Virus record (IMG/VR): IMGVR_UViG_3300042260_000461
Location: 1 to 56,979 of that record
DNA: 56,979 nucleotides
Source: a virus
Taxonomy: Duplodnaviria > Caudoviricetes
Strand: one strand, 5' to 3'
Shown here: positions 6,301 through 20,936 of the stretch, piece by piece
Position numbering within the stretch: position 1 is the first letter of the stretch
Layout of the letters: each line of letters starts with the position of its first letter
Program-made: the position numbers and the translations under genes
The notes under the pieces: generated by a model
Told to the model about the DNA's origin: nothing
Seen by the model: only the letters and a program-made list of their open reading frames with translations
The model's database searches: none

Positions 6301-9300
6301 ACACGCGAGACGAAGCGGCGGCGGTTGTCGGTGTGGAAGTTCTTTTCGTCGGCCACCATCAGGCGGGCAGCCGGGTAAAGCATCTGCCACTCGTGCGCAA
6401 ACTGCTTGAGCATGTGGTTGGGCACCACGATCATGGGCTTCTTGATGAGGCCCAGGCGCTTTTGCTCCATGGCCGAAATGACCATCTGGAAGGTCTTGCC
6501 CGAACCCACGGCATGCGCCAGGTAGGTGTTGCCGCGCTGGATGATGCGCCAGGCCCCGCGCTTGACGTGATCGAACACGCTGAACGCCTTGGACGTGCCC
6601 GGCAGCGTCAGGTGACGACCGTCAAAGGATCGCGGCACCGTGGTGTTGAAGGTGTCGTTGTAGATCCGCACCAGGCTATCGGTGCGCTCGGCATCCTTCC
6701 ACACCCAGTTGGCAAAGGCCTCGCGCAGTGCTTCGAGCTTCTGGTTGGCCGCTTCGGTACCGGCAGAGTCAAAGACCGTGGTCTTGTCTTTGCCGTAACC
6801 CTGGCTCTTGGTGATGCGGATGGGCCTGCCGGTCAAGGCATGCTCCATGATGTCCGTCACGTTGCGATCAGCCGTGCCCCAGTCGGCGGTGGCCTGCATG
6901 GTCTTGCCGCCGCTGACCTCCTGAACGGACCATTGCTTGGTGCGCTCATTCCAGGACACCTGGGCGCGCACACCGGCCAACTCGCGCAGGAATTGGCTGT
7001 ACACAGCGCCGGGCACCCAGTTCATGCCGATGCCCACATTGATCTGGCTTGGGGTCTTAGGCGCGGGCTGGGCAGCTTCGAGCGCCGCCACATTGCGCTC
7101 AAAGCGCTTGTCGGTCTTGGCAGCCGTGCGGGCTTCATCCAGTTTGCGCTTGACGTTGCCGCTCAAGTACTCGTCGGCAGTCACCCAACTGACAGCGGGG
7201 TCCTCATAGATGGCGGAGCCCAGGGCCTCGATGGTCTCGGCCTCGGTCAATCCCACGCGCTGGGCGATCAGAGGGATGTCCACATGCCCCACATCGTTGA
7301 GCGATGACAGCATTGCATCGACTGGGGTGTTGACGCTGGCAGCATCGGGCTTGCCCAGCACGCGCTCAGTTAGGAAAGCACTGGGCTTAATCTCGCCCGT
7401 GTCCTCGTTGATGGTCTCCAGAGCCGCGACCAGGGTGTAATCCGGGTCATCCTCCAGCTTGCGCAGCAGGGTGTAGACGCGCACCTGGGTTTCATCGGTG
7501 TAGGTCTCGCCCGTGTCCTCATCGACCACTTTGGACTTGACGGACTTGAGCGTGAATTGGTTGATCTGGCCGTGCTTTTTGGTGAAGTCGGCATAGGCCT
7601 TTTGCAGCGCCTTGATGCTGGTTTCCCAATCGCCCTCGTTCAACTGGTCGTAGTGCGCCTGCTTGAGGGCATCGCGCAGCGGCACAAAGTCCTTGATGAG
7701 TTGCACATCGGCTTGCGAGCGCAACTCCACGCGCTGGCCCACCCCACCCTCACGCACCATCAGCGCGCCGGAGTCGCTGACGTAGTAGTTGCCTTCTTTC
7801 TTGGCCTTGGGGTTGAAGTCGATCTCGCGGACCTTGGCCGCTTCGGCAGAAGATCCACGCTCGGCGGTGTAGATGCCCTCGGGCAGGCGGTTGATCGCCT
7901 TGTCGAACAGGGCCTCGATGTCGCCATCGAGCGGCGCGACCGTGTACTCGCGGTCCTTGTACATGGAGCCCGCATCGGAATGCGTGCCCAGCACCATGTC
8001 CGGGTTGGCCACAAAGTACTCGTTGATGTTGTAGTCGTTGCCGTTGACCTTGAGCGGCACCGACTTGCCCCAGGACTGAGCGCCCTCGAAGGTCTCACCT
8101 GGCACTTTTTTGCGCAGGAAGATCACATCTGTGACCACCTCGGTACCGGCGTTTTGCTTGAAGGCGGTTTGAGGCAGGCGAATTGCGCCCACCAGGTCCG
8201 CACGGTCAGCCAGGTACTGGCGCGCCTTGTCATCGAGCTTGTCCATGGTGTAGCGGCTGGTGACGTACACCACCAGACCGCCCGGCTTGGTGCGATCAAT
8301 CGACTTGGCAAAGAAGTAGTCATGCAGGCTGAATGCCCGCTTTGCGTACTCTGGATCGCTCAGGATCTTGGTGCCAGAGAACGGCGGATTGCCGACCGAC
8401 ACGTCATAGAAGTTCTTGGGCAGCTTGGAGTCCACGAAGGACTCGACCAGGATGCGCTCGTCGGGGAACAGCTGCTTGAGGATGCGGCCCGTGAAGGAGT
8501 CGAACTCGATGCCGGTGTAGATCGAGTTTGCGGCCATGGCGGCGGGCATGAGGCCTGGGAACACGCCGATGCCAGCGCCTGGCTCCAGAATGGCCCCGCC
8601 CTTGAAGCCCATGCGGTCCAGTGCGCGCCACATCGAGCGCACCACTTCCTTGCTGGTGTAGTGGGCGTACTGGGTCGAGCGCGAGGCCTCGGCCCATTCC
8701 TTCTCGGACATGGACGCCTTGAGGCGGTTGCGCAACTCCACCCACTTGCGCACGCTGGGCTCGGGCTTGGCCTTATCCAGCATCTCGCGGGTGATGTTGC
8801 CCGCCGTGTACCAGGTCAACTGCGGGTTGCGGTATTGCAGGACCCGGAAGGCAGGCGCGTACTCGCCGTAGCGGGCGTTGGTCAGGAACGGGCGATCACC
8901 CAGGGCGGCGATGGCCTCGTCGTAGTTGCTCAGCGCCTCGGCGGCCTTGTCCAGCTTGTCGCCAAACAGGTTGTTGGCGATCTCGGAAGCGCCCCAGCCA
9001 ATGAACTTGGCCAGCTTCGCCTGCTCTTCGCGGGTGGCCTGGCGGCCATCCTTCTCCAGCGACAGCAGCAGTTCAATGGCTTCGAGGTTCTGCTCGGCCT
9101 TCTTGAACCAACTGCCCTCATAGCTCAGGTCGGAGGCTGAGAAGGCGTAGTTTCGTCCGGACTTTGCGGGGATGTCGCGTCCTGCGGGAACTCCAGCATT
9201 TCGGCCAGCACGATCTCGCGGTTGAGGCTGCTTGCTGTTCGCATCCTGGCCGCGCACTCCATCGGCCCCAGCTTGTCCCACCCCTCCTTGATCCGCTGCG

Positions 9301-12300
9301 TTTGCGTCAGCGTCACCACCTGCGAAGAGATCTGATCCGCCAGGTCTTGGGCGTACTCGTTGAGTTGGCCGCTTGCCGCCAGGCTGCGATACAGCGCGGG
9401 TGCCTTCTCCTTGATCGCGTCCTTGACCAGCGTTATCGTTTGCATCTTGATCTCCAGTTTTCTCGCCAGTATATCCATTTCCGGATATTTGTGGTACAGT
9501 TGTGTCGAGAGGTGTTGAAATGAATGTTCCAGACAGATTCCCACCAGGCTGCGAGTTCGGCATGGACTTGACCGACGACGATGGCGTGGAGTTGGTGTAT
9601 GTCGAATTCCCCGATGGCAAGCGCTTTGTGCTCAACGAAAAGTCGCCTTGGGATGGCATGTCGCCAACCACCTGGTGGCCCTTGCGTTGGTCGAGATTGA
9701 CTGAGGCTGGTTTCTTGGAAGCAGCAGGCAAGCCAGCAGAAGTGGTCGCAGCAGCACGTGCAGCCGCTGCGGAGGCGGCCAGCGGATAAATTTCACGCTG
9801 CGCCGCAATGGCGTTAGCTTGCGTTTCAGAGCCTTCGGGCTCTGCTCTCTCGATCTCATAGAGCTTATGCCCCTCGGCGTTCTTGACCGCCAGCATTTCG
9901 GGCACATTGATTTGGATCTCGGCAGTCGTGCCATTGGCGGTGCGAACATTGACCAGCACCTGGCCATAGCCAGAGTCCAAGAACCCAGCCTTGCCACTGA
10001 CTTCTGTCGCCTTGATCCCGGCGTCTGACTGATCCTTGATGCGCTTGGGCAGGATCTCAAACTCTTTTCTGATTGCATCGACCACGGCCTGAGCATCGGC
10101 GTAGCTGCTCACCACAATGGTCGAGCGCAGCATGTCGTACATCTTGCCGGGGTCGAAGTTAACGCCCTCATCCGTCACCAGCTTTTCAACAGAGCGAGCA
10201 AGCCCCTTTACTGGTGCAAGCATCTGGCCAAGTGCGCCGGTGCTCTTGGCGATGTCGATGATCTTCTGGTCGTACTCGGCCTTGGCTTCATTGGCGCGCT
10301 CAATGAGCGGCTTGAGCAGCTTCTCGGCCTTCTCACGATCCTGCGCGCTGATCTCGACAGGTGCGGCTGATTTGAGCAGGCGGCCAATTTGGTCGCGTGC
10401 GTTCGCCAGGACATCAGCGGGGATGAAGGTGTCGGTTTCAGGCGGGGCGAAGTTGTCCAGCTTCATGTCGTACGGGCGGCCATCGATCATGGCGGCCTTG
10501 GGCTTGTCTGCCAGGTCGGCCAGCGCATCCCCGAACAGATCTTGCTGACCCATACGGGCCTCGGCAGCTGCGAACAAATCATCGACACGCTGGGCCGACT
10601 CGCGGGCCATGGCCTGCTCGGCAGCCTTGCGGTACAAGTCGGTGGCAATCTTGTTCCAGAAGGTCTTGAGCTTCGGATCGTTCTTGAGCGCCTGCTTCAC
10701 GTAGGCCACCAGATCCTTGAGGCTGTAACCCACTTCCTTGATACCGGCCTCCATCAGGCGGATCAACGTGGGCATGAGGTCCGGTGTCTTTTCCGGGACC
10801 ATCATCAAGCGCGTGTGCTTGGTGGCGATCATGGCCAGGTCAGCCATGGCGTCCTTGAAGTCTTGACGGGCTTGGGCACGCGCCTGGTCGGTTGCAGCGC
10901 CATCGGAGCGCTTGACGCTCGGAAACTGGAACGTGGCGGCCATCAAGTCACGGATGGGCGCGTCAAACTCGATCACCTTGACCGGCTCATTCATAGCCAG
11001 GGCAGCCACCCACTGGTGATGACCGTCCAGCACATAGCCATCGGCGGATGCCAGCACAGAGCGGTCTACGCCATCGCGCACTTGTTTCCAGCGCTCGGCC
11101 TTCTTGCTCGAAAACTCGGCCTGGGTCGGCTTGAGGTCAGCGGCTGGGCGCTCGACCGTCTTGTGCTCGATGCCCTTGCCTTGCAGGAATTGGATCAGCG
11201 CGCCGCGATGCTCGCTTTTGACCTGGGGCATTTCGGCACGGGGAATGCCGATGGTGCCGGTGTCGGGCGGGAACATCACCCATTCGCTTTGCTCTCCTGC
11301 TTGGGTTGCGGCAGTGGCGCGGGCAGCCCCATCGCCTTGATCGCCGCCGCGATTGCTCGGCGCATCTTGGGATTGCTGTCCACCTGGCGCATCAGCTTGC
11401 GCACCTTCTCCAGGGTCTCGCCGCTGGGTGTCTTGGGCAGTGTTGCCATTGTCATTTCCTCGTGCAGATTTCAGAAGGTCGGCGCGTGCCGGTGCGGTGT
11501 CGGTGTCGCCAAAGATCAAGCCTTGGCTGGGGTCTCCAGCAGCTTCCAGGGCCTCGTAGTAGCGCTGCACGAACTCGGCAATGCGGCGCGGGCTGCGGAT
11601 GTTGTCGGCCAACAGGGTCAAAAGCTGGGAAGCCTCGGGCGAGTACTTCGCGCCCGTGAGGTCGCCTTGGCCAAGTTCGTCGGCCACGCTCCAGCCCTTT
11701 TCCTTGAGGGCGGACAGGCCTTCAACGGCGGCCAGAAGATCCGGCGCAATGTCGGCCTCGTACAAGGTACCGGCCTGCATGCGCTCACGTGATGCTGCAA
11801 TGGTCGGGGCCACACGCACCAGTGCCTTGGTGACGTTGCGCAGGTTGTCATCCATGCTCTCGGTCATGCGGCGCAGCGTGGGCGAGTCACCGTAGGCCTT
11901 GGCCAGCACGGCGTTTTGGATGCGCCGGTAGCCGAACGTGGACAGGCGGCCATCGGACTCCACCATGTCCGACTGCTCAGTGATCGGCAGCATGGCCATG
12001 AACTGGCGGATGAAGTCGTAGGACGTGGTGAAGTCACCGGCATCGTCAGGGCTCAAGCCTTCCAGGGATGCCAGGCGCTTGGAGTCAGACACGGCCTGCT
12101 CGCTGGGGCTCATGCGCTGCACGGTCGAGGCGTTGGCCTGGCGTGCGAACTCGGCGCGGTTCACCGGGGTCTGGCGCAGGCGCACTAGCACCGGCTTGGC
12201 CAAGCCATCCACAGCCTCGGGCGTGAGGCCGAATTGACCGGCGTTCTCGCGCAGCCAGGCCTTGTAGTCCTCGGCCTTCTGACCATTGGCCTGATACACG

Positions 12301-13904
12301 CGCTTGAGGGCGATGGTGCGGGCGTTGCCCGACTCCACCAGGCCATCAGCGCCAACAATCGGCGCGCCCGTGGCGGCGTCAGCCGACAAGCCCAAGCGGG
12401 CCGGGTCGAGCTTTTGCACGATGCTGGAGACCTGCAACTCGCTGGCCGAACGGCTGCGGTCGCGGGGCTGCAATTCCTGGGGGTACAGGCTGTTGGGGCG
12501 CAGGCTCTCGTCGTGCGATGTCACCAGGTCGGCGGCATCCATCAGGGCGTACTGGCCATTGAGCCTGACGCCTGCCTCGGTCGAAAAGCTGGTGGATGCG
12601 CCCGGCTGGGCCTTTGGCCAAGACTGGGCGATGCTGGCGCGCTCGCTGGCCAACTCCTGGGCCTTGGTCGCCAGTTCGGCGCGCTCCTGGTCAAAGGCGG
12701 GGCCGTAGCCGTTCTCGGCGGTCAATTCCTGTGTGCGCTCGGCAATGCGTGAGATCTCGGTATCGATCTCGCCCACACGGTCCAGGGCAGTGAGCGATAC
12801 CGGCGTGCGCAGGGCTTTCTCGGCCTCGGTAGGCTGCGTCACAGCCATATTGGGCGCAGTGGCCGATTGCGGTGTGACAGGTGCTTGGCTCTGTGCTGGC
12901 GCTGGCTGGGGGGCGTTTCCGGATTCAGGTGTGATGGGCTTTTGTTCCCCAGCCTGGCCGATGGCGTTGCGGGCAGCCGAATACGTGTTCATGCCGCCGC
13001 CCATACCGGCACCGGCCACCATGCCCTGGGCGGCAGCCTCTGGCACGCCCTCGTCCCATGGCTTGCCCAATGCCAGGTTGGTGAAAACCTGCTCCTGGGC
13101 AGACTGCGGCAGTTCCTCCAGCACACCCTCTTTGAATGTGCCCTTGGCGATCTCTTTGCCAGCCTGCACAAGGCTCTGGCGCTGTGCGCCGCCCATGCCT
13201 GCAACGGCTGCGCCGACTTCAGCATCACGGAAGCCGGGAATCTTGGATGTGACCAGGCTGATGGCAGCCGTGCCCAAGCCGCCAGCAACGGCGGCAGGAG
13301 CGGTGTCGGTGTAGTCTCGGCCAGCTTGGCGGCCTGCCTCCTGAATACTGCCTGCGGTCATCGCGCCTTCGGTGGCTGCGCCGATGCCGGTCAACTTGGC
13401 AATGGTTGCAGGCTTGGCCAAGAAGGCGGCAGCCTCAGCGGTACCGGCCTTGATACCGGCAGAGGCCAGCATCTTCGAGGCGGCGGCGCGCACTGCGGCG
13501 GCACCGCCCAACATCATCGGCGTGGATTCAACGATGGAGCCAACGGCAGCGCTGGGGTTTTGCACCAGGGCCTTGGTCGTGTCCACGAAGCCTTTGGCCT
13601 GCGAAACCTCACGATTGGCCTGCTGGCGCGGGTCGCTGTAAAAGTCGCTCAGGATCTGCTTGGTTTGCTCAGGGTCGTAGCCCATAGCCCCCAAGCCCTT
13701 GCCCACCAGGTTGCCGGTGGCCAGATCTGCCAGGCCTACGGCAGACTCACCAAACCCAACAACGCCCTTGGCCAGGTCGATGCCTGAGTCGGCAATAGCC
13801 TCGCCCCAAGTGCGATCGCGCTGATCTGGTTTTTTCTTCGACTGCTCTTGGTCCGGAACAAACCGACCACTAGACTCAGAATTTTCGTCCGGTACAAATG
13901 CCAT
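336..13904 (-). CDS. Giant DarB-like polyvalent (probably virion-injected) protein: DdrB/ParB-like, second ParB-like, RelA/SpoT-like synthetase, N6-adenine methyltransferase, SNF2 helicase, zincin metallopeptidase and C-terminal LPD-like domains
   Basis: 4522 aa. Motifs: VESGNARTIAL; LKPTQ..DGHHQW; K..RSVEK/DMLRSTI/GY/EIQI/HKLYE; ILEPGAGIG and NPPF; AHAVGSGKT, DEAH, QREGRIVRQG; HEAAH. Last gene of the late arm, after the ejection genes. Confidence 0.9.
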   Translation of the reverse strand: MAFVPDENSESSGRFVPDQEQSKKKPDQRDRTWGEAIADSGIDLAKGVVGFGESAVGLADLATGNLVGKGLGAMGYDPEQTKQILSDFYSDPRQQANREVSQAKGFVDTTKALVQNPSAAVGSIVESTPMMLGGAAAVRAAASKMLASAGIKAGTAEAAAFLAKPATIAKLTGIGAATEGAMTAGSIQEAGRQAGRDYTDTAPAAVAGGLGTAAISLVTSKIPGFRDAEVGAAVAGMGGAQRQSLVQAGKEIAKGTFKEGVLEELPQSAQEQVFTNLALGKPWDEGVPEAAAQGMVAGAGMGGGMNTYSAARNAIGQAGEQKPITPESGNAPQPAPAQSQAPVTPQSATAPNMAVTQPTEAEKALRTPVSLTALDRVGEIDTEISRIAERTQELTAENGYGPAFDQERAELATKAQELASERASIAQSWPKAQPGASTSFSTEAGVRLNGQYALMDAADLVTSHDESLRPNSLYPQELQPRDRSRSASELQVSSIVQKLDPARLGLSADAATGAPIVGADGLVESGNARTIALKRVYQANGQKAEDYKAWLRENAGQFGLTPEAVDGLAKPVLVRLRQTPVNRAEFARQANASTVQRMSPSEQAVSDSKRLASLEGLSPDDAGDFTTSYDFIRQFMAMLPITEQSDMVESDGRLSTFGYRRIQNAVLAKAYGDSPTLRRMTESMDDNLRNVTKALVRVAPTIAASRERMQAGTLYEADIAPDLLAAVEGLSALKEKGWSVADELGQGDLTGAKYSPEASQLLTLLADNIRSPRRIAEFVQRYYEALEAAGDPSQGLIFGDTDTAPARADLLKSARGNDNGNTAQDTQRRDPGEGAQADAPGGQQSQDAPSNRGGDQGDGAARATAATQAGEQSEWVMFPPDTGTIGIPRAEMPQVKSEHRGALIQFLQGKGIEHKTVERPAADLKPTQAEFSSKKAERWKQVRDGVDRSVLASADGYVLDGHHQWVAALAMNEPVKVIEFDAPIRDLMAATFQFPSVKRSDGAATDQARAQARQDFKDAMADLAMIATKHTRLMMVPEKTPDLMPTLIRLMEAGIKEVGYSLKDLVAYVKQALKNDPKLKTFWNKIATDLYRKAAEQAMARESAQRVDDLFAAAEARMGQQDLFGDALADLADKPKAAMIDGRPYDMKLDNFAPPETDTFIPADVLANARDQIGRLLKSAAPVEISAQDREKAEKLLKPLIERANEAKAEYDQKIIDIAKSTGALGQMLAPVKGLARSVEKLVTDEGVNFDPGKMYDMLRSTIVVSSYADAQAVVDAIRKEFEILPKRIKDQSDAGIKATEVSGKAGFLDSGYGQVLVNVRTANGTTAEIQINVPEMLAVKNAEGHKLYEIERAEPEGSETQANAIAAQREIYPLAASAAAARAAATTSAGLPAASKKPASVNLDQRKGHQVVGDMPSQGDFSLSTKRLPSGNSTYTNSTPSSSVKSMPNSQPGGNLSGTFISTPLDTTVPQISGNGYTGEKTGDQDANDNAGQGRDQGEGTRAVSQPGGKRPTQRVRPRPGGSDLFAGGDADANAADQGGVGQAGADGVRGQDANSKQPQPRDRAGRNAGVPAGRDIPAKSGRNYAFSASDLSYEGSWFKKAEQNLEAIELLLSLEKDGRQATREEQAKLAKFIGWGASEIANNLFGDKLDKAAEALSNYDEAIAALGDRPFLTNARYGEYAPAFRVLQYRNPQLTWYTAGNITREMLDKAKPEPSVRKWVELRNRLKASMSEKEWAEASRSTQYAHYTSKEVVRSMWRALDRMGFKGGAILEPGAGIGVFPGLMPAAMAANSIYTGIEFDSFTGRILKQLFPDERILVESFVDSKLPKNFYDVSVGNPPFSGTKILSDPEYAKRAFSLHDYFFAKSIDRTKPGGLVVYVTSRYTMDKLDDKARQYLADRADLVGAIRLPQTAFKQNAGTEVVTDVIFLRKKVPGETFEGAQSWGKSVPLKVNGNDYNINEYFVANPDMVLGTHSDAGSMYKDREYTVAPLDGDIEALFDKAINRLPEGIYTAERGSSAEAAKVREIDFNPKAKKEGNYYVSDSGALMVREGGVGQRVELRSQADVQLIKDFVPLRDALKQAHYDQLNEGDWETSIKALQKAYADFTKKHGQINQFTLKSVKSKVVDEDTGETYTDETQVRVYTLLRKLEDDPDYTLVAALETINEDTGEIKPSAFLTERVLGKPDAASVNTPVDAMLSSLNDVGHVDIPLIAQRVGLTEAETIEALGSAIYEDPAVSWVTADEYLSGNVKRKLDEARTAAKTDKRFERNVAALEAAQPAPKTPSQINVGIGMNWVPGAVYSQFLRELAGVRAQVSWNERTKQWSVQEVSGGKTMQATADWGTADRNVTDIMEHALTGRPIRITKSQGYGKDKTTVFDSAGTEAANQKLEALREAFANWVWKDAERTDSLVRIYNDTFNTTVPRSFDGRHLTLPGTSKAFSVFDHVKRGAWRIIQRGNTYLAHAVGSGKTFQMVISAMEQKRLGLIKKPMIVVPNHMLKQFAHEWQMLYPAARLMVADEKNFHTDNRRRFVSRVALSDLDGVVITHSAFKLLDLDPEFKSKMIEEQLDYMRAALEEAEAEDGKGGKKSPRIKQIEKQIENMEQKLEAAMASTGKDTNVRFDELGVDMLYVDEAHEFRKLDFTTSRQVKGISPQGSARAFDLYMKSRYLEQKNPGRSLVLASGTPVTNTLAELYTVQKFMDRQALEDRGIEDFDSWASMFGRERTVLEPNAAGKYEPVTRFSKFVNVPELTQMFREFADVLTSDTLAALLGDKRPKVENGSRKIIVTPKTGAYDGYQSDLSARVEKSRAWKPTKDEPNNPDPMIRIIGDGRLAAIDMRFIDPSLPSDPDSKLNRMIDDVIRVLTETKDMEYRDKAGNVEPNKGAATMVFSDLGFGEGVAANRGFNARAWFEKRLRDAGMPMNQVAFMSDYKKSADKLKLFKDVNAGRVRLLVGSSKNMGTGVNAQQRLKALFHLDSPWYPADLEQREGRIVRQGNKNPLVQLYAYAAKGTYDENMWKMLASKQFFIDQALSGDANLRELEDLDSQSQYDLAAAMVAEDPRILQLAGARAEIEKLQRLYRAHEDQRARFKSQYDMARTTVEFNQKRMPEAEKMAALVQDLSGDKFRAKVMGKTLAERADWAEALIAKYKDLTARGETKPMTIGEISGFPVVFGGETVAGQFMTKVMLGTPDPILLIADAGTSPIGVAMRAQNAVSDVARLPAKMRERITEAKAQIDALTSRLESPFPMAGMLADKVKEANDLEDMIASDSKPKTWRVENKASGLGFDVQATNADEAITKAVSTNGGAAEDWMATEASEVKPAEDTRLSRGAGAASGGVSVDDLDAMVRGVKATMPNMPKVTVLSDPSKAPKGLREYIIRQDAWDDVEGAFHEGGLYLFASGLSDMARAEHVLLEHEAAHFGLRALLGDSLKTAMALVSANNANVRRAAFEIQKRGNKMSTAEAVEEAIVDIPTAQLAKLKGWRKVTVMVRDWLLAHGYKNLANKLSDLLEGSLTQQQRADLFVAELVRGAREYVAGKSPVSRVGYMGDTRLSTTLKDDIERQEKWLQTEARARGFTDVEDMLAKDYPLFERLAAKWREKNPAEDGVMLSRRKDARERADEILSQKAGSRAPLDALAKGLTRITGIERLTGAIYDRAGYLLDRYTPETIKAGVVADYGVPQAVIDQRVLLQGRQRVQLRKAGELIEKLSTLTREESRVAYEWMNMDGADPKAYVSMMQGLPEESVKVLQDVQKMIDQLSREAVRLGQLSPEAYEANKYAYLRRSYAKHILEQTAGEKAKRARVISILGDQYKGRGLTEAATMAKLKNTAPEWWGRKLVKGKADAGLKGEKFVRLERRAASGEGTKPLEGMEGKALGKLLEVAYWPAGETIPSQYSEWSKAGTFEVRDVKGENVIFWRDFTKDERETMGEVDEARFAIAKTLHGMIHDVEVGRYLEWMAHGYALKEGETIPGEVVEASERYRDTFKPGEWVRVPDTKISGTSVAKYGKLAGRYLPGPVWNDLRQVVNGQFKPFGDTYAQILSMWKTAKTALSPAVHMNNVMSNFVMADWHDVGAAHVAKSLRLILAASQREGQGALGGLGNKLAKAGIADREAAREILNRYTDSGGDVGSWVTNEIAKDQLEPLLAKLEQELAATGGQSAQAEVGVMSALQNALMLRFPTAWEAFKGSKPGKAIGTEANSLIDLYQAEDDVFRLAAWLKAKEEGATDIDAGKASRRSFLDYSINAPWIQAMRQSAWPFISFTYRAVPMLAEIAGKKPHKLMKLMLLAGALNALGGMLAGGDGDDEERKLLPEEKAGKIWGMVPKLIRMPWNDQHGSPVYLDIRRFIPVGDVFDVGAGQAAVPVLPGMMPGGPLVLFGEVVFNKSAFTGKPITLDTDTPLQKAEKVADHLYKAFAPNVLGLPGTYATTGVSEAAQGKTDAFGREQSVAQAVASSFGVKLGSYPADVLRRNLNAKAQAEIAEVEKNIAQLKRQRQTNRISQDEFQEAVQVEVQKKTKIMRDLAEKVK
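9125..9445 (-). CDS. Nested +1-frame gene, TnpV-like helical protein (106 aa)
   Basis: GGAGA RBS 5 nt before ATG. KEKAPALYRSLAASGQLNEY..KEG..MECAARM..REIVLAEML resembles the TnpV family. The host frame here is low-complexity linker. Confidence 0.7.
   Translation of the reverse strand: MQTITLVKDAIKEKAPALYRSLAASGQLNEYAQDLADQISSQVVTLTQTQRIKEGWDKLGPMECAARMRTASSLNREIVLAEMLEFPQDATSPQSPDETTPSQPPT
9471..9488. promoter_or_regulatory. 18-bp operator inside the giant gene, within a divergent promoter
   Basis: ATATCC-ATTTCC-GGATAT, a perfect match to the motif at the cI/cro and early promoters. It overlaps a minus-strand -10 TATACT (9468-9473); a plus-strand extended -10 TGgTACAGT lies at 9492-9500. 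Confidence 0.75.
9520..9789 (+). CDS. Nested antisense gene (89 aa), candidate antitoxin of the embedded RelA/SpoT-like domain
   Basis: GAGAGG RBS and its own extended -10. Globular-looking aromatic/acidic sequence (MNVPDRFPPGCEFGMDLTDDDGVELVYVEFPDGKRFV...). Ends tail-to-tail with the synthetase domain. Confidence 0.65.
   Translation: MNVPDRFPPGCEFGMDLTDDDGVELVYVEFPDGKRFVLNEKSPWDGMSPTTWWPLRWSRLTEAGFLEAAGKPAEVVAAARAAAAEAASG
11276..11449 (-). CDS. Nested +1-frame gene (57 aa), basic helical protein
   Basis: GAGGA RBS 8 nt before ATG. MATLPKTPSGETLEKVRKLMRQVDSNPKMRRAIAAAIKAMGLPAPLPQPKQESKANG*. Below the ORF-track cutoff; the host frame is low-complexity. Confidence 0.6.
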   Translation of the reverse strand: MATLPKTPSGETLEKVRKLMRQVDSNPKMRRAIAAAIKAMGLPAPLPQPKQESKANG

Positions 13905-13937: not shown

Positions 13938-13952
13938 TGCCATGCTTGCCAC
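13938..13952 (-). promoter_or_regulatory. Recurrent late-gene upstream motif GTGGCAAGCATGGCA
   Basis: Identical copies at 13938, 17916, 31977 and 36065, and a variant at 30554, each just upstream of a minus-strand late gene. Confidence 0.7.
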
Positions 13953-13955
13953 CAA

Positions 13956-15599
13956 TTACTGCCAGGTGCCGGACTTGCCGCCGATGGTGATCCGGTCGCC
14001 CTTCTTGATCTTGCCCTCTTTGGCGGCCTTTTCTGCATCGGCCTCACTGGCAAATGTCGCCCCGGCAGGCTTGGCAGAAGCAGGCATGGCCCAGCGGCCA
14101 TTGGTCTTGGCGTAACCCATGGTCTCCATCACCTTGTCGGCGGACGCCACGGCATCCTCGGGCTTGGCCATGTTCTTGATGCCAGCGGCCACGAAGTCCT
14201 TGTGCAACTCGCCAGGGTCCTGGGTTTTCTTGGTCAGGGCCATTTCCAGGCCTGAGCGCATGTCAGGCGCAAGGCCAGCATTGACCATGGCCTGAGCCAG
14301 CTTGACCTCAGAAGGCGCGTTCTTGCTGTCCGGACTCACATCGATGACGCCACGGCGCACTGCCTCCAACTCGGCAGCGGTCGCATTCGGGTTGCGCTGC
14401 TTGAACAGTTCCACGGCAGCGGCAGCCTTGGCGGTCTTGTCGTTCTGTTCGGTCGTGGCGGATGTGGATGCGCGAGCATCGGCATTCTTGGACAGTTGCA
14501 GCTGCTCGTTGCCGCGCCGGTTGGTTTCGCTCTGGTAGAAACGGTTGAACACTTCACCGGCCTTACCCAGTGAGTCCAGTTCGGCCACGGTGTTGATCGT
14601 GCGGGTGTTGCCCTGGCTATCCTTAAACTGAATGACACGGGTCTCCACACCATCCTTGTTCTTGACCATCTTGTCAGAGATCACGTTGGCCGGGTCAAAC
14701 TGCACCTTGCCGTTGGCATTGAAGGCCTTGGCCACCTCCTGGAGCGAGCCGCCAGACTGGGCCAGGCGCAAAGTCTTTTCGTAGCCCTCGCTTTGCACCT
14801 TGTTGAGCAGGTCGGTGAATTCTCCAAAGGCCTTGGCATCGAGCTTGCCAAAGCGGGCATCGTGGTCGATCAGTGAGGCGCGGTCGGCCAGCGCATCGCC
14901 CACCGAGTACTCGGGACGGGCAGGTGCCACAGGGGCTAGGCCCAACTCGGGGCCTGCTTTGCCGGAGGCCTTGGCCCCTTCATAGTCAGCCAGGCGCTTT
15001 TGGTATTCGCCCATGGCCTGGTTGTAGGACTGCTGGTTTTGGCCAAAGCGTGAGGACGAAAACAGGCCCTTGCGCCCTTCCTCGTATTCCTTTTGTTTGG
15101 CCACTTCCTCGTCCTGGCGCTCCCAGTTCTTTTGCTCGCGGCCAAAGCGCTGTTGCTCCTGGGTAAAGCGTGCCTCGTCACGCTGGCCAGCAATGGCCTG
15201 CTGCTCCATCTGCATGCCGCGCACGGGGTCGAACTTCTTGAGGACACCGGCCATGGCCATGGTCTTGGCGTTGTTAGCCTGGCTGGGCGTCATGGTGCCC
15301 GCCGTGCGCTGCCCCATGAAATCAGTCACGCCCTGCTGGGCGATCACGGCAGTCTCGCCGCCAGCTTTGGGGGTGACTGTGTAGCCCTTCTTGCCCTCGT
15401 CATAGGCGATGTCGTACTGGCCAGACTCGGCAGCGGCGCGCAGTTGGTCGCCCTGCTCTGCTGTGAAGCCTTCGCTCGTGGTGGGCTGCTCGCTGGCAAT
15501 CTTGCGCATCTCGGAGTCCTGCAAGACCTTGCTCACAGTGCCGTAGCCCTGATTGAAGCCCTCGAAGAACTCTGCAACTCGGTTTCGACGTGCCATCAC
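13956..15599 (-). CDS. Putative internal virion/DNA ejection protein
   Basis: 547 aa, Ala/Gln/Lys-rich and helical; lies between an ejection gene and the giant gene. Confidence 0.65.
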   Translation of the reverse strand: MMARRNRVAEFFEGFNQGYGTVSKVLQDSEMRKIASEQPTTSEGFTAEQGDQLRAAAESGQYDIAYDEGKKGYTVTPKAGGETAVIAQQGVTDFMGQRTAGTMTPSQANNAKTMAMAGVLKKFDPVRGMQMEQQAIAGQRDEARFTQEQQRFGREQKNWERQDEEVAKQKEYEEGRKGLFSSSRFGQNQQSYNQAMGEYQKRLADYEGAKASGKAGPELGLAPVAPARPEYSVGDALADRASLIDHDARFGKLDAKAFGEFTDLLNKVQSEGYEKTLRLAQSGGSLQEVAKAFNANGKVQFDPANVISDKMVKNKDGVETRVIQFKDSQGNTRTINTVAELDSLGKAGEVFNRFYQSETNRRGNEQLQLSKNADARASTSATTEQNDKTAKAAAAVELFKQRNPNATAAELEAVRRGVIDVSPDSKNAPSEVKLAQAMVNAGLAPDMRSGLEMALTKKTQDPGELHKDFVAAGIKNMAKPEDAVASADKVMETMGYAKTNGRWAMPASAKPAGATFASEADAEKAAKEGKIKKGDRITIGGKSGTWQ

Positions 15600-16717
15600 T
15601 TCACCTCTTCAAATTCGATGCCCAGCATCTGGTAGTTGACCGAGGCAAAGCCCATGTCGTCGTACACCACGGCATCCGGGAACCGTGGCTCAACCTCATC
15701 GGCCATGACGCCACGGAAGCGGGTCGGGTTGCCGGTGTAGTTGAACTCGTACAGGTTCAGGCCCGTGGCCTCATCTTTGCCAACCAGGACAATGTTTTCC
15801 TTGAGTCGGCGGTCTGAGAAGGCTGTGTACAGGCTGGCAGCGCCACCCAGCACAGAGCCCACGCCACCGAGGCCGCTGTCCATGTCAGCCACAGACTTGG
15901 CGTAGTTGCCTTGAGCGTTCATCACACCAGTCAGGCCCGTCATGGCGATCTGGCGGCCATTCATGGTGGTGTTTGCGCCCGTGGTCATGCCAGTCATCAA
16001 TGCCCCACCTGGGGCCATCTGGTTTGTCATGGCGCTGTTGCCACTGTTGGTACCGGCAGAGTAGAAGCTGGGCGCGCTCGAAGCCATGCCCGAGTAGGTG
16101 TTGAGCGTGTCGCCCATGCGCGCATAGGACTTGTCCACGGCCTGGGTGCGTCCGGTGTTGGCAGCGCCCGCCTTGGCTGTTGCCGCGCCCAGATCCATGA
16201 CGCCCTGCATGGCAGCAAATCGCCCGCTGTTGGGGTTGACGCTCATGCGCGTCATGGCTCGATTGGTCTGCTGGCGCTGGTTGTCCATCGCGGCAGACAC
16301 ATCGGCCACGTTCTCCGTGGCCGCCTTATCCATCTGGATCTGCAACTCGGGCGAGACCTTGCCCATGGCGATGTCGCGCATGGCCTGCTGGAGCGGTCGG
16401 CCTTCGGTCTTGAAATTCTCGAAGCTGTAATTGCCCTGCTCGTAGGCCTGGTCCATGTTGCGCTTTTGAGCGTCAACGATGGGGCGAGCGATCTCAATGT
16501 TCTGCTCGTACTGGCGGCGCGACTCGGCCATTTGCTCGCGGCCAAGCTGCGCAGAGATCTCGGCGGCCTCCTTCGAGGCTTGAGCCACAGGGGTGTAGTC
16601 CGGTGGAGGCGGCGCATCGCCGCCAAAGTCCAGGTGGCACACGTTGCGCCAGTTGTTGCCGTGGATCTCGCGCAGCGACTCCAGCCGCTGCTCAAACCGT
16701 TCGCGTTTGGTTTTCAT
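15596..16717 (-). CDS. Putative ejection protein with C-terminal peptidase S74 / intramolecular chaperone domain
   Basis: True start MKTKRERF (AAGGAG RBS, ATGA overlap). GGDAPPPPDY motif, Gly/Ala/Met-rich body, SDRRLKENI..GVMADEV. Confidence 0.75.
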   Translation of the reverse strand: MKTKRERFEQRLESLREIHGNNWRNVCHLDFGGDAPPPPDYTPVAQASKEAAEISAQLGREQMAESRRQYEQNIEIARPIVDAQKRNMDQAYEQGNYSFENFKTEGRPLQQAMRDIAMGKVSPELQIQMDKAATENVADVSAAMDNQRQQTNRAMTRMSVNPNSGRFAAMQGVMDLGAATAKAGAANTGRTQAVDKSYARMGDTLNTYSGMASSAPSFYSAGTNSGNSAMTNQMAPGGALMTGMTTGANTTMNGRQIAMTGLTGVMNAQGNYAKSVADMDSGLGGVGSVLGGAASLYTAFSDRRLKENIVLVGKDEATGLNLYEFNYTGNPTRFRGVMADEVEPRFPDAVVYDDMGFASVNYQMLGIEFEEVK

Positions 16718-17904
16718 GGGGTGGCTCCTTCGCGGTGACGGGATGCAGCCACTTGGCCAATCACCGTATGAATATCGATGCTGTGCCGGGCTTCCATCTC
16801 GGCCATGTACTTGGCCAAGGTGTCGCCCTGCACCAGGTTGTAGATGGCGGGGGCCACGTCCAGGCCCCACTCGTACCCGCCCACCAGTTCGGCGCAAGTG
16901 ACGAACACGGCACCGACATGCACGCGCAGCATGTGCGCCTTGCGCCAGGCCTCACGGTCTGTCGTGGCCTCAAAGTGGTTGGCTGCATGCCAGGCCGAAA
17001 TGCCAGCGGCCAGCACCGGGGCCAGCACTGCGGCATGGCGCACGTAAAACGGATTGAGCGGCAGATCTACCAGGCAGGCGCGGAAAGCGGCATTTACGTC
17101 ATAGCCGCGCACTGCCTTGTCGCCATCGATGATGTCATCCCATGTGTGCAAGATGTTGTACAGCGCAGTGCACAGGCGAATGGCGTCCTGATCGCCCTGC
17201 ATGGCCTCGGCCAAGGTGGTGACGCCTTGGGTCTGCGTCTGGGCAGGCTTGCGCAGGATGTAGATGGCCGCCGTGATGTTGCCGCCATGGGGGGCGTGGT
17301 CGTGATCGCCAGCATGCGAGTAGCCCTCCATGAAGCGGTGCCAGCGGGAAAAGTCGGCCCGCACGTGGCGGGCTTGGCGCTCGACCGAAAACCCGGCAGC
17401 CTCGGCGTAAGTGGTCAAGGCGTCCGGGTGATGCACCGTGTAGCCCCAGCGGCTCTCGCTCACGCCACAGGTGCGGTTGTGCGAGACAAAGCCGAAATCT
17501 TTGATGCACAGCTTGCCGCCAGGCTTGAGCAGGCGCATGGCCTCATCGAGCAGCGGGCGGATGCGACCGTAGCCAAAGGACTCGTTGAACATCACCAGGT
17601 CCGCGCACCCATCGGGCAGGCCGGTGTTGGCCATGTCGGCAATGCGGATGGTCACGCCCGGCAGAACGTGGTCGGCCTGCACTGGCGAGTTGGTCACGCC
17701 AATGCACTCAAGGTCGGGGTTTTGGTGCCAAAAGTAGTGGCTGACGCCACCAATGCCGCAACCGAGATCCACCACAGTGCCAGTCGGCTGGTAGATCTCG
17801 TACAGAGCCCGGCAGTGCGCTTTCTCGTCAGGGGCGAACATCGCGCCCTGAAAGACGCGCATCCCGGCACTCAAAAACTCGCGGGTGGCATCCTCATAGT
17901 CCAT
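16714..17904 (-). CDS. Class I SAM methyltransferase fused to a DDxxD isoprenoid-synthase-like domain
   Basis: VVDLGCGIGG, NESFGY and RLLKPGG motifs; helical C-terminal half with HTWDDIIDGD. Confidence 0.8.
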   Translation of the reverse strand: MDYEDATREFLSAGMRVFQGAMFAPDEKAHCRALYEIYQPTGTVVDLGCGIGGVSHYFWHQNPDLECIGVTNSPVQADHVLPGVTIRIADMANTGLPDGCADLVMFNESFGYGRIRPLLDEAMRLLKPGGKLCIKDFGFVSHNRTCGVSESRWGYTVHHPDALTTYAEAAGFSVERQARHVRADFSRWHRFMEGYSHAGDHDHAPHGGNITAAIYILRKPAQTQTQGVTTLAEAMQGDQDAIRLCTALYNILHTWDDIIDGDKAVRGYDVNAAFRACLVDLPLNPFYVRHAAVLAPVLAAGISAWHAANHFEATTDREAWRKAHMLRVHVGAVFVTCAELVGGYEWGLDVAPAIYNLVQGDTLAKYMAEMEARHSIDIHTVIGQVAASRHREGATP

Positions 17905-17957
17905 TCATGGGAGGGTGCCATGCTTGCCACGGGGACAATCAGGGCGGTGAACTCCTG

Positions 17958-18320
17958 TCAGGCTGCTGGGGCCTCAGTGGCCCTGATGACCTTGAGCCGC
18001 TGGGCAGAAACATTGTGCAGAACCTCGTAAGGGTTCCTGCCTTGCGCATTGAACGCAGCGACTTCTCCATCAACGTCAACCTTCACGCTGTAAGTGTTGA
18101 TGCCATCATCGCCTTGGCCGATTTGCTGCACGTCCAGCACGCGCACACGATTGACATAGATTTCGTTCATGGCATTCATAATCGTTGCAGACTCAACGGC
18201 AACCATCTTTTTGACGCCTTCAAACTCAATTTCGACATTAAATGTTTTCATGGATTCAACTCCGTGCATTGACTGATAAATTGCGTGAGCCGTGTCAAGT
18301 TCGTACTGTTCCAGCATCAC
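17958..18320 (-). CDS. Hypothetical protein
   Basis: 120 aa, start overlaps the upstream stop, lower-GC segment. Confidence 0.6.
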   Translation of the reverse strand: MMLEQYELDTAHAIYQSMHGVESMKTFNVEIEFEGVKKMVAVESATIMNAMNEIYVNRVRVLDVQQIGQGDDGINTYSVKVDVDGEVAAFNAQGRNPYEVLHNVSAQRLKVIRATEAPAA

Positions 18321-19006
18321 GGCCTCGCAATTAAAAGGGGATAGTTGTTCACGTCCTGGTACGTTCCAGGGCCAAGGTCGGCATAGGAAATTTGGTTCGG
18401 CGGCGCAGAGCCTCCAGCAAGCCAGTTAATAACTGAAATGCCCCCTGGGTTTGGATTTCCTCTGTTGACTGAAATCTGTGAGGTATTTGGTCTAGTAATT
18501 GTCCAAAATCCTGCCCAAGCGCACCACATGCCCGAGATGCCCATAAATTGTCCGCTGATGTAGCTTGCATAGTCCGCAGCATCGTGCGAGATCGACTGTG
18601 ACGTGCTGGAGTACTTTGCGGTGAAATTGAACCCAGCCAGAACCTTTGCGTATTGCCTGTTGCTGGAAAAAACCACCCTCGATGACTCGTCCTTAACCCA
18701 GACACCAGCATCCGATCCCACAGCCCCGTCTGTTCTTGGCGAGCAAATCATGTATTCGGCAACCGATGACCCAGATAGAAGAAATCGGGCGCTTGTGTTT
18801 GAACACTTGCCTGGGACAAAAATGGCGCTGCTGTTCGGAATTTTGACGAACAGCATGGGCAATTCAACGTAAGGGTAGGTGATCTCAAAGTAGCCAGTTG
18901 AATAGGCTTGAGAGACTGCGCTTTGTTGAATTACCTCAAAGTTGCGAAACGCACTGTCAACAACGATTTCGTTGCTGCTATTTCTAATCGAAAATCCGTA
19001 TGTCAT
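18317..19006 (-). CDS. Putative tail-associated protein
   Basis: MTYGFSIRNSSNEIVVDS and GVWVKDESSRVVFSS pattern, typical of proteins downstream of J-like tail tips; low GC. Confidence 0.6.
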   Translation of the reverse strand: MTYGFSIRNSSNEIVVDSAFRNFEVIQQSAVSQAYSTGYFEITYPYVELPMLFVKIPNSSAIFVPGKCSNTSARFLLSGSSVAEYMICSPRTDGAVGSDAGVWVKDESSRVVFSSNRQYAKVLAGFNFTAKYSSTSQSISHDAADYASYISGQFMGISGMWCAWAGFWTITRPNTSQISVNRGNPNPGGISVINWLAGGSAPPNQISYADLGPGTYQDVNNYPLLIARP

Positions 19007-19008
19007 GG

Positions 19009-19275
19009 CTATTTAAACAAGAGGCAGTAAGCCAAGCCCGGATTCGGTGAGTTCCAGGTGAAGATTTTTGTTGCGTTGTCAAAAGAGCATGCGGCATTGC
19101 GCACAGATCCTGTTGACGCCACAAAACCAAACACGCCAAGCGATGTGTCAAATGCAGGCACGTAGGCGCTTCCGCTCTGCGCTGTGCTTGAGTAAATGAT
19201 GCGACTGAGCCGATCTGAGATCTCAAGCCTCGTAGCACCGCCAGCGTCAAAAACTCTTAGTCCGAACGGCATCAA
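19009..19275 (-). CDS. Small tail-associated protein
   Basis: MPFGLRVFDAGG N-terminus; directly follows the J-like gene. Confidence 0.6.
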   Translation of the reverse strand: MMPFGLRVFDAGGATRLEISDRLSRIIYSSTAQSGSAYVPAFDTSLGVFGFVASTGSVRNAACSFDNATKIFTWNSPNPGLAYCLLFK

Positions 19276-20936
19276 AGACTCCCAATCCTCACGCGCAAGA
19301 CGCCATTGGCGTCATACACGCTGATGCCGGTATTGGTCACAACCATGCGCTCGCCTATATCGCCGCTTTTCAGAGTGGCATTGCCATTGGCGTCCACGAT
19401 GAACTTGCCATTGATGTTCATGCTGACACCGGAAATCGATCCGGCAGTCACAGTGCCAAGATTGGCGCTGATAGCCGATAGGCTGGTCGCATTGATCTTG
19501 CTGGCATCCAGGCTGGCGATCTTGGCGCTTGTGATCGCCGCATCAGCAATGCGCGCCACGTTGATGTAGCCGTAGGTGATGGCCGCCGCATCGACGTTGA
19601 GCAGCTTGGCGTCCAGGCTGCCCGCTTGAATGCGGTCGGCGCTGATGAAGCCCGCATTGATCTTGCTGGCGTTCAGGTTGGCCACCTTGGCATCATCGAC
19701 CGCCAGGTTGGCGATCTTGGCGTTGGTGATGGTGCCGTTCTGGATGAAGGCGTCACTCATGTACACGCCCACTGGCACGCTCACGCCGTTGATCGTCACG
19801 GGTGTGGTGCGCACGATGAACGGCATGGACGGGGCCACACCTGGGCCTTCGGGGCTGGCGATGTAGAACGAATCGGACCGGATGGCAAAGGCGCTGGTTG
19901 GCGTTGCGCCGTTGGCCGTGGATGCCAGGCCAAAGCCCGACACATAGCCGTTCACATCGATCTTGACCGTGTACCTGGCGAAAAGCTGCCCGGTCTCGGA
20001 TGCCCGCGCAGTCTGCTCGGTCTGGATCGCCGCCGTGTTGGAGTTGACCGTGGCGGCCAGTGTCTGGCGCGCCTGAGCCTCGGCAGTGTCGGCGTTAGCC
20101 CGTGCAGTCGCCTCGGTCTGGATGGCAGCGGCCAGGTTCGCGTCCGCCGTGTTCACGGCAGCGGTCAAGGTCGTGATCTGCTGGGCCAGGCTGGTGTCGC
20201 CGCTTTGCCGCGCAGTCTGCTCGGCCAAGATCGCCGCGCCGCGAGCGTTGGCTTCAGCCAGAAGCCGGGCGTTGACGCTACCCGTACCATTCCCGTCCAC
20301 CAAGTTGATGCGCTCGGCCAATGACTGGTACAGCTGGCTCTCTGTGATCTCGCCGGTCAAGGCAGTCAGAAGCGTGCCCACGTCCTGGCCAGTCACCGCC
20401 TCAAGGCCGTTGGTGCCGCCAGCGGGTGCCGCGCTCAACACCCCGTCCACGGTCTCCCACTTGATCCACAGCCGCCAGGTCGTGGCCGGGTTGCTGGCCA
20501 GTGCCCAGATGGTCCCCGAGAACTGGCCAAGCTCCACCGTATCATTGAACGTGGGCAGAGGCTGGCCAGCCGTGTGCGTCACGCCATACAGGCGCGTGCG
20601 CAGGTGCCCGTGGCCCATCAGGTAGGCGGGCAGGTCATGCTCGATGAACACGTGGCTGATCGCCGCGCTCACGGCAAAGCCCGTGGGGGTCGGCGGCGGG
20701 GTCAGGTCGGGCTCTTCGCCCTGAGCCACAGCGTCACCGGGCTCCAGCAGCGGAATGTCGCCGCCAGGCCGCCAGCCCTTGGCCAACTTGATGATGCCGT
20801 TCTCGATCAGGTCGCGCAGCGTCAGGCCTCGGTCCAGGGGGTTGCCCTGCTTACCGAGGTAGGTCATCAGCGTTTCGCGCACGCGCTGGGGAAAATTCCC
20901 GGCTGATGGTGGCGGCAGATCGTTGCGGTTGGTCAT
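19272..20936 (-). CDS. Tail fibre/tip protein with J-like (DUF1983-type) domain
   Basis: Coiled coil, then YTVKIDVNGYVSGFGL..FIQNGTITNAKI, A(S/D)KI repeats, and C-terminal VYDANGVLRVRIG. Confidence 0.75.
   Translation of the reverse strand: MTNRNDLPPPSAGNFPQRVRETLMTYLGKQGNPLDRGLTLRDLIENGIIKLAKGWRPGGDIPLLEPGDAVAQGEEPDLTPPPTPTGFAVSAAISHVFIEHDLPAYLMGHGHLRTRLYGVTHTAGQPLPTFNDTVELGQFSGTIWALASNPATTWRLWIKWETVDGVLSAAPAGGTNGLEAVTGQDVGTLLTALTGEITESQLYQSLAERINLVDGNGTGSVNARLLAEANARGAAILAEQTARQSGDTSLAQQITTLTAAVNTADANLAAAIQTEATARANADTAEAQARQTLAATVNSNTAAIQTEQTARASETGQLFARYTVKIDVNGYVSGFGLASTANGATPTSAFAIRSDSFYIASPEGPGVAPSMPFIVRTTPVTINGVSVPVGVYMSDAFIQNGTITNAKIANLAVDDAKVANLNASKINAGFISADRIQAGSLDAKLLNVDAAAITYGYINVARIADAAITSAKIASLDASKINATSLSAISANLGTVTAGSISGVSMNINGKFIVDANGNATLKSGDIGERMVVTNTGISVYDANGVLRVRIGSL

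Follow-up and report, generated by a model that had tools for sequence, protein, structure and literature searches.

The window analyzed here is the whole 56,979-base stretch of a virus record in IMG/VR (IMGVR_UViG_3300042260_000461; Duplodnaviria; Caudoviricetes), which is linear and 97% complete. Our analysis concerns a gene at 16714–17904 on the minus strand, whose open reading frame (ORF) encodes 396 amino acids (P0001) and a stop codon. According to the ORF, the alignment of its homologues and the AlphaFold2 (AF2) model, the protein consists of a class I S-adenosylmethionine (SAM)-dependent methyltransferase, a linker, a helical domain with the Asp-rich pattern WDDxxDxD and a tail predicted to be disordered. 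Since 14 full-length homologues retain both halves (40–84% identity), the ORF is not a chance one. The fusion, the phage family to which the helical domain belongs, the position of this family before the ejection genes and its recurrent link with methyltransferases are solidly established; the function that we favor for the helical domain, that of a prenyl-synthase-like module serving the ejection apparatus, is put forward tentatively.

Layout of the Gene and Its Genome

All parts of the locus described in this section lie on the minus strand. The methyltransferase domain covers residues 1–218 (17251–17904), as delimited by Pfam, Foldseek, a profile search of the PDB and the secondary structure of the AF2 model. 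It includes a His-rich loop at residues 197–208 (17281–17316), HAGDHDHAPHGG, of the pattern HxHxxHGxN, which the alignment and the AF2 model place within the methyltransferase fold and which is kept in the fused clade only. An earlier first-pass annotation, made from the sequence alone, had taken this stretch for the linker between the domains; in the AF2 model it precedes the last methyltransferase strand (210–218), and the linker lies at about residues 219–230 (17215–17250), where the predicted local distance difference test score (pLDDT) is low (mean of 64 for the block 221–230). The all-helical domain follows at residues 231–376 (16777–17214), supported by profile searches, conservation, AF2 and fold searches, and its Asp-rich motif, WDDIIDGD (W255–D262; 17119–17142), closes the first long helix on the C-terminal side. 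The C-terminal tail, residues 377–396 (16717–16776), is predicted to be disordered and is unconserved. The AF2 model of the full-length protein has a mean pLDDT of 83.7. All motifs quoted in the first-pass annotation are present (DLGCGIGG at 46–53, GVTNSPVQ at 69–76, DMANTGLP at 90–97, FNESFGY at 106–112, LKPGG at 126–130 and WDDIIDGD at 255–262), and its view that the gene joins two domains, one of them a true class I methyltransferase, was borne out, the Pfam cut-off being passed and both halves recurring in the homologues.

One arm of the genome carries an integrase, RecT- and YqaJ-type recombination genes and a single-stranded DNA-binding protein, and a long late operon runs on the minus strand from the terminase, portal and major head genes through the tail genes to a giant protein of 4522 amino acids. 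Around 16714–17904 the GC content is ordinary relative to the genome, and a megablast search against phage records returned no near-identical DNA. The gene is joined to its downstream neighbor by an ATGA overlap (16714–16717), in which its stop codon TGA (16714–16716) lies on the ATG (16717–16715) of a gene for a 373-residue ejection or virion-structural protein (15596–16717).

The Methyltransferase Half

The N-terminal half matches the Pfam families Methyltransf_11 (PF08241; 4.3e-10, 40.5 bits against a cut-off of 21.2) and Methyltransf_25 (PF13649; 36.9 bits against a cut-off of 27). Its SAM-binding Gly-rich motif I, DLGCGIGG, is that of class I, and its predicted fold is Rossmann-like, with strands alternating with helices; VFQGAM and MFNES(F/I)GYG are motifs specific to its clade. 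The Foldseek search that the first-pass annotation had proposed for this half gave solved small-molecule methyltransferases at E values of 6e-10 to 1e-8. Judged from these similarities, it is a class I SAM methyltransferase of the small-molecule type.

The narrower assignment to the sterol or geranyl diphosphate (GPP) C-methyltransferases, which had also been suggested, was not upheld. Prenyl-methylating enzymes do occur among the Foldseek neighbors (TleD, GPP 2-C-methyltransferase, BezA and the C6-methyltransferase of farnesyl diphosphate, FPP; the matches include 3vc1, 4f85, 7fbh, 9tb4 and 5gm1, with E values of about 1e-9 to 1e-8), but they score no better than sarcosine/dimethylglycine methyltransferase, RebM, AtmM, MitM and phosphoethanolamine N-methyltransferase. 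By sequence profile, the closest solved relatives in the PDB are plant phosphoethanolamine N-methyltransferases (2.4e-14 and 9.5e-13), and the same query reached BezA at 1.7e-7, a sterol C-methyltransferase at 6e-7 and the GPP methyltransferase at 1.2e-6. The NCBIfam model GPPMT_Stmyces scored 19.1 bits, far below its cut-off of 400. As neither Foldseek nor the profile search nor NCBIfam favors the prenyl methylators, the substrate class is unreadable from similarity.

The Helical Domain as a Phage Family

Residues 231–359 match phrog_21390, a PHROG of unknown function, at 3.7e-31 (profile positions 13–140 of 153), and all 110 aligned relatives match this PHROG and no other. Pfam gave no family at E ≤ 1 for residues 222–396 and none for the 110 relatives, and the NCBIfam and PADLOC searches with the helical domain returned no match; the family thus has no Pfam model, and its sole library entry is the PHROG. 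When 1.84 billion representatives were searched with a profile built from ten fused homologues, 1357 clusters were recovered at E ≤ 1e-3, 780 at 1e-10 and 62 at 1e-30. Most members are stand-alone proteins of about 150 residues: 142 of the best 150 clusters are 123–206 residues long, so the helical module normally stands alone. A methyltransferase is attached in four of the best 150: in P0006 and P0040 the order is that of the gene studied here, and in P0121 and P0157 it is reversed.

Several members depart from the common form. In P0152 (315 residues) the helical domain is tandemly duplicated, with WDDxIDKD in both copies, and this arrangement suggests that the helical module may act as a dimer. 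P0082 (270 residues) and P0094 (276 residues) have unexplained C-terminal extensions and P0056 (232 residues) an N-terminal one; WDN replaces WDD in P0056, P0082 and P0121.

A tblastn search of 50,697 deposited phage records, with four members of the family as queries, matched only Achromobacter phage CF418P1. Its stand-alone copy of 157 residues, encoded at 5369–5842, is followed by a phrog_8003 gene, a gene for 593 residues and a giant gene, which is the gene order of the source phage. A contig profile search of bacterial genomes found three loci only, all in metagenome-assembled genomes (MAGs), one of Polaromonas and two of Telmatospirillum. The four relatives in BFVD are all uncharacterised, and the protein language-model clusters closest to the helical domain are unnamed and viral. 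Literature searches brought up no paper that connects the ejection genes of phages with a prenyltransferase or a terpene synthase, and none on CF418P1.

Position Before the Ejection Genes

The 373-residue neighbor matches phrog_8003 (9.5e-35) and also phrog_6121 and phrog_4287, which are ejection or virion-structural PHROGs, and its C-terminus (region of residues 301–350) contains a Peptidase_S74 domain (5.5e-08). Peptidase_S74 is an intramolecular chaperone domain usually located on tail fibres. With the ATGA overlap present and these PHROGs matched, the proposed coupling to the first ejection gene is confirmed.

The suggested survey of synteny showed that this linkage extends far beyond the source phage. 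At least 397 stretches in IMG/VR encode a relative of the helical domain; the best 80 loci were kept, and these hold 61 non-identical copies, L001 included. After two near-duplicates had been dropped, and with five loci lacking a called ORF, 54 downstream ORFs could be compared. More than half of them (28/54) belong to ejection or virion-structural PHROGs (8003, 4287, 6121 and 598), one belongs to tape-measure or endolysin-type families, and 25 have no match; in most cases the start codon of the downstream ORF lies a few bases inside the 3' end of the helical-domain gene. On the upstream side, 18 of 59 ORFs carry tail-fibre or tail-tip Pfam domains (Gp10_C in ten, DUF4376 in three, and GP38, Gp53-like_C, Phage_Tail_Tip, Mtd_N and Lambda_tail_I in one each), one is a methyltransferase (L066) and 36 belong to no family. 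The helical-domain gene is positionally locked directly upstream of the first ejection-protein gene in podophage-like genomes, and it often comes behind genes of the tail-fibre type.

At locus L076, the ORF directly upstream of the helical-domain gene (3465–3971, plus strand) encodes an S-adenosylmethionine decarboxylase domain (PF02675, 8.6e-15); here a SAM-related enzyme of another kind adjoins this family.

Recurrent Association With a Methyltransferase

The partnership of the two modules is found in three arrangements. Besides the fusions in the order of our gene, the reverse fusions P0157 and P0121 contain both parts: their methyltransferases are 39% (E 7e-34) and 36% identical, and their helical parts 33% (E 2e-29) and 31%, respectively. 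A methyltransferase profile built from a four-sequence alignment located 10 viral loci. In seven of these a separate gene for a helical domain of 148–157 residues begins where the methyltransferase gene ends or slightly before that point; in two the helical domain was not found nearby.

A tree of 91 helical domains, computed by a quick maximum-likelihood search, unites the 16 fusions in the order of our gene in one clade (96 in the Shimodaira–Hasegawa-like approximate likelihood ratio test, SH-aLRT); in it the adjacent-gene forms require at least two origins, and the two reverse fusions branch elsewhere on long branches. The methyltransferase-linked forms thus occupy at least three places in the tree, and the partnership has therefore arisen or been retained repeatedly; this speaks for a substrate or pathway that the two modules would share. 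The recurrence points to a small molecule or a lipid as the substrate, which is directly searchable.

Yet another architecture ties the methyltransferase clade to ejection genes. At the last of the 10 loci, L099 (2006–4293, plus strand), directly after an ejection-type gene, a relative of the methyltransferase is continued at its C-terminus by about 280 unrelated residues, giving a protein of 487 residues in which no helical domain was recognized (hhalign probability 0.27%).

Conservation and Predicted Fold of the Helical Domain

The AF2 model of the helical domain, based on the alignment of 110 sequences, has a pLDDT of 92.6 and consists of six or seven helices. The mean column identity in this alignment is 33%. 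D256 and D260 are present in all 110 sequences, R327 in 108, D262 and N284 in 106 each, D257 in 104 (with Asn in five others), E312 in 100, D/E361 in 97 and N309 in 96. The family consensus of the Asp-rich motif is W-D-[D/N]-L-[IV]-D-x-D, and six aromatic residues are also conserved (W255, F286, Y287, W305, W346 and Y366). As a pattern of conservation, these near-fixed polar residues and aromatics resemble a metal or ligand site.

Structural comparisons brought up prenyl synthases, with weak scores. Foldseek gave no match in the PDB at E ≤ 1e-3, and its top rows were geranylgeranyl, farnesyl and octaprenyl diphosphate synthases (GGPPS, FPPS and OPPS; E of 0.47, probability up to 0.93, template modelling score of 0.46–0.48). 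In VIA-align, which is independent of Foldseek, each of the first 14 rows among 48,161 representative chains was a prenyl synthase or a prenyltransferase; the best was a 188-residue chain of heptaprenyl diphosphate synthase of S. aureus, aligned over 135 of about 145 residues, and 9kp1_A of B. subtilis, 3qkc_A (a GPP synthase small subunit) and the recruiting protein 5xn6_C were also listed. The closest named language-model clusters, which serve as leads only, were polyprenyl_synt (15% of members), DUF2600, HEPPP_synt_1 and HexPS-like, at 0.77–0.79; we take DUF2600 to be the YtpB terpene-synthase family. A sequence search of the PDB with the helical domain gave no significant match, its best hit being an unrelated beta-propeller protein (E 0.15).

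The isoprenoid-synthase-like C-terminal domain that the first-pass annotation had proposed is thus retained in part. The best structural neighbors are indeed trans-prenyl diphosphate synthases, and the recommended Foldseek comparison of this half gave GGPPS rows with a probability of 0.93; sequence homology (hhalign probability of 0.95%), a second motif and full size did not bear it out.

The N-Terminus of the Ejection Protein

It had further been suggested that the Cys in NVCHLDFGG (Cys27) of the ejection protein is a candidate acceptor of a prenyl group. When nine N-termini of ejection proteins were aligned, a Cys near Cys27 was found in four, and the ejection protein beside the nearest fused homologue with known context (L082, in the Polaromonas MAG) reads YFLDFGG, with no Cys; the specific idea of Cys prenylation is therefore unsupported. 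What is conserved at the N-terminus is a stretch rich in Gly, Ser and Pro that ends in P-x-P-D-P; often a leader of 20–35 residues, itself optional and ending in [LF]-[DNH]-[FL]-G-G, comes before it. In the ejection protein of the source phage (residues 1–45) the leader ends in LDFGG and is followed by APPPPD. An aromatic or Cys residue commonly precedes the flexible stretch. Relatives either share the leader or begin directly at the P-x-P-D-P stretch, and this pattern hints that the N-terminus of the ejection protein may be processed. The predicted complex of the helical domain with residues 1–300 of the ejection protein scored 0.00 against a mark of 0.32, which is uninformative either way.

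Interpretation and Alternative Explanations

The explanation that we favor, with a probability of about 0.35, is that the helical domain is a Mg2+- and diphosphate-binding, prenyl-synthase-like module serving the ejection apparatus and that the methyltransferase is a tailoring partner, though an optional one. The module would then be a ligand-binding or catalytic unit and no passive scaffold, and, to judge from the structural models, its fold would be a cut-down one of the trans-prenyl diphosphate synthase (isoprenoid-synthase) type. The W-D-D/N-x-x-D-x-D at the helix end would be the counterpart of the first Asp-rich motif of prenyl synthases, and the Asp cluster, together with N284, N309, E312, R327 and D/E361, would bind Mg2+ and a diphosphate ligand, in the simplest case a prenyl or polyprenyl diphosphate. 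More speculatively, the module might prepare or assist the ejection proteins of the adjacent gene, for example by lipidation, lipid anchoring or engagement of membrane polyprenyl lipids, and the methyltransferase, in the minority of lineages having one, might tailor the same ligand or its product.

Several known systems invite comparison. Like the homodimeric trans-isoprenyl diphosphate synthases FPPS, GGPPS and OPPS (PF00348), the phage domain has an Asp-rich motif at the C-terminal end of a long helix, with a basic residue after it. Pairs of methyltransferases and terpenoid synthases are also known: GPP 2-C-methyltransferase works with 2-methylisoborneol synthase, and BezA, the C6-FPP methyltransferase and TleD likewise belong to non-canonical terpenoid pathways. 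The phage pair resembles these in that a class I methyltransferase from their broad structural cluster is coupled to a helical module with DDxxD; it differs in that its methyltransferase is at least as near to N- and O-methyltransferases, its partner is not a full terpene cyclase, and its setting is the ejection genes, not a biosynthetic cluster. ComQ of Bacillus, a polyprenyl-synthase-like enzyme of about 300 residues, prenylates ComX, the peptide encoded by an adjacent, overlapping gene. The phage gene, DDxxD-bearing and isoprenoid-fold-like, similarly lies directly upstream of, and overlaps, a gene for a possible protein substrate; ComQ, however, is of full length, and no conserved acceptor residue was found in the N-termini of the phage ejection proteins.

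A number of observations weigh against this explanation. The phage domain has about half the length of the PF00348 enzymes and, by eye, no second DDxxD in residues 222–396, whereas those enzymes have two Asp-rich motifs. The PF00348 model is blind to the domain and has no match within the window, in which Pfam-type scans found no other isoprenoid enzyme. A DDxxD-like motif is shared with class I terpene cyclases, but their second metal motif, NSE/DTE or (N/D)Dxx(S/T)xxxE, is absent from the phage domain, in which only N309-x-x-E312 and D/E361 are conserved. In 5 of 110 members the Asp-rich motif itself has WDN instead of WDD. At the profile level, hhalign against eight polyprenyl synthases was non-significant (probability 0.95%, E 0.058), its only aligned stretch placing WDDLID on the Asp-rich motif HDDxxD, and when PDB sequences were searched with the helical-domain profile the only hit, a sesterterpene synthase with the Asp-rich motifs aligned, had a non-significant E value of 1.3. 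To these are added the lack of a conserved Cys in the ejection protein and two features of the methyltransferase, namely the first rank of the phosphoethanolamine N-methyltransferases and the match of residues 3–223 to the PADLOC model mad2 (mads_2; 2.5e-15), which exceeds every Pfam and NCBIfam model. A preprint states that in the MADS defence system the predicted methyltransferase is encoded by mad2 (10.1101/2023.03.30.534895). Finally, most family members have no methyltransferase, and the core function therefore needs none.

Ejection proteins are the least understood part of infection by short-tailed phages. The family described here comprises at least 1357 clusters, has no Pfam model, scarcely occurs in cultured phages and keeps a fixed place before the ejection genes; being large, unnamed and so positioned, it is therefore a conserved unknown in the ejection process. 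If the binding of prenyl diphosphate is true, phage genome delivery would be tied to the isoprenoid lipids of the host, and the module would be a new minimal form of the isoprenoid-synthase fold. The novelty would lie in a relative of the prenyl synthases by predicted shape, half-size and with a single motif, in a new setting and here fused to a methyltransferase. A bolder version, which we regard as a long shot, is that a minimal isoprenoid-synthase-fold enzyme of 150 residues, carried by many uncultured podophage-like viruses, uses a prenyl or polyprenyl diphosphate to lipidate or lipid-anchor the ejection proteins of the next gene and that the lineages with a methyltransferase, the source phage among them, make a methylated lipid; such a modification of ejection proteins, if true, would add to the delivery of phage genomes a step not recognised before. 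On this version the helical domain might also represent the half-size unit behind the origin of the two-motif prenyl synthases, an idea with which the tandem duplication in P0152 would fit.

The main rival, possible if doubtful, is that the helical module is instead a non-catalytic assembly factor, a chaperone or a minor internal virion protein that binds the ejection proteins, loads them into the procapsid and, where a methyltransferase is present, acts as its adaptor for methylating an ejection protein. The conserved and often translationally coupled position before the first ejection gene would follow naturally from such a role, as would the confinement of the family to phage structural modules; the weak fold evidence for an enzyme and the many members without an enzyme partner point in the same direction. 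T7 gene 13 and P22 gene 14 are small genes before the ejection genes for which a loading role has been proposed. They share this position and a similar size with the helical-domain gene, but the tblastn search of phage records described above, with CF418P1 as its only match, revealed no sequence relation, and we know of no Asp-rich motif in their proteins. A chaperone surface is also hard to reconcile with nine polar or charged residues at 87–100% conservation against a mean identity of 33%, which is more like a ligand site. Moreover, the relatives of the methyltransferase are small-molecule enzymes, not known protein methyltransferases, and no homology of the family to an annotated assembly protein was found. 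Should it nevertheless be only an assembly factor, the family would still mark the starts of ejection clusters in metagenomic phage contigs and thus aid annotation.

It is improbable that the helical module mimics a non-catalytic small subunit of the HepS, HexA or plant GPP synthase type, pairs with IspA or IspB of the host and redirects the synthesis of isoprenoids, quinones or lipid carriers late in infection, the methyltransferase acting on the product. The phage domain is in a similar size class (about 150–250 residues) and is all-helical, with a predicted fold that would be a cut-down isoprenoid-synthase one. Its best structural match, the S. aureus chain, is nearly one-to-one and is taken for a small subunit from its length; 9kp1_A, 3qkc_A and 5xn6_C are listed as well, and the HEPPP_synt_1 and HexPS-like clusters are among the nearest named ones. 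According to a review, however, the small subunits of heteromeric enzymes are non-catalytic regulators without DDxxD or other Asp-rich motifs (PMC7839719), whereas an invariant WD(D/N)xxDxD is the most conserved feature of the phage family. The window also has no PF00348 gene for a large subunit, no sequence similarity was detected, all the similarity scores are weak, and the strict linkage to ejection genes in a phage structural context would be left unexplained.

Still less probable is a cluster of Trp and carboxylates whose ligand, in place of a metal-diphosphate, is an amine cation or a phospho-base, for instance a polyamine or the head group of ethanolamine or choline, with SAM enzymes modifying the amine. 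An invariant Trp beside four Asp residues would suit cation binding, the best solved relatives of the methyltransferase act on phosphoethanolamine, and at L076 an S-adenosylmethionine decarboxylase lies directly upstream. This last link is present at 1 of 59 loci, however, the scores of the methyltransferase are generic for the Methyltransf_11 clade, and the fold neighbors are prenyl synthases, not amine-binding proteins.

A counter-defence methyltransferase acting on nucleic acids, with the helical module as its packaging or targeting tag, is very improbable: the mad2 match and an operon that ends in a giant protein with ddrB-ParB, Eco57I-type methylase and SNF2 domains speak for it, but the (D/N)PP(Y/F/W) motif of amino-methyltransferases is absent from the 396-residue sequence (by eye), Pfam gives generic small-molecule families and not N6_Mtase, and neither the conserved Asp cluster nor the pairing with a methyltransferase in three architectures would be explained.

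The Repeated 15-mer and Other Features of the Late Operon

A 15-nucleotide motif, GTGGCAAGCATGGCA, was located by motif search at 17916–17930 on the minus strand and ends 11 nucleotides upstream of the start codon of the gene. Three identical copies occur in the window (13938–13952, 17916–17930 and 36065–36079), all on the minus, or late, strand; they precede the giant gene, the gene for the 396-residue protein and an ORF of 143 residues (35602–36033) that adjoins the portal gene on its upstream side. They were located with the 20-mer around the motif as query and as many as three mismatches allowed (chance expectation 0.07), and the motif was absent from the 102 other loci. It may be a late promoter or regulator site specific to this phage. 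The first-pass annotation had credited the gene with its own late motif: the repeated 15-mer upstream is real, and its role as a promoter is that of a candidate. A reading as a sigma-54 promoter was rejected, the spacing of the GG and GC elements being about 2 bases short of the consensus. A scan of 15500–19500 for sigma-70 promoters gave 0 sites against 1.6 expected.

Two further ORFs on the minus strand flank this pair of genes, one of 120 residues upstream of the methyltransferase fusion (17958–18320) and one of 547 residues downstream of the ejection gene (13956–15599); PHROG, Pfam and NCBIfam searches gave nothing above noise for either. The giant protein of 4522 residues (336–13904, minus strand), whose start is preceded by a copy of GTGGCAAGCATGGCA, closes the late operon. 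It contains a ddrB-like ParB domain (445–577), an Eco57I-type methylase (1828–1902) and an SNF2-related domain (2457–2649), and presumably resembles the DarB-type anti-restriction proteins that are injected with phage DNA.

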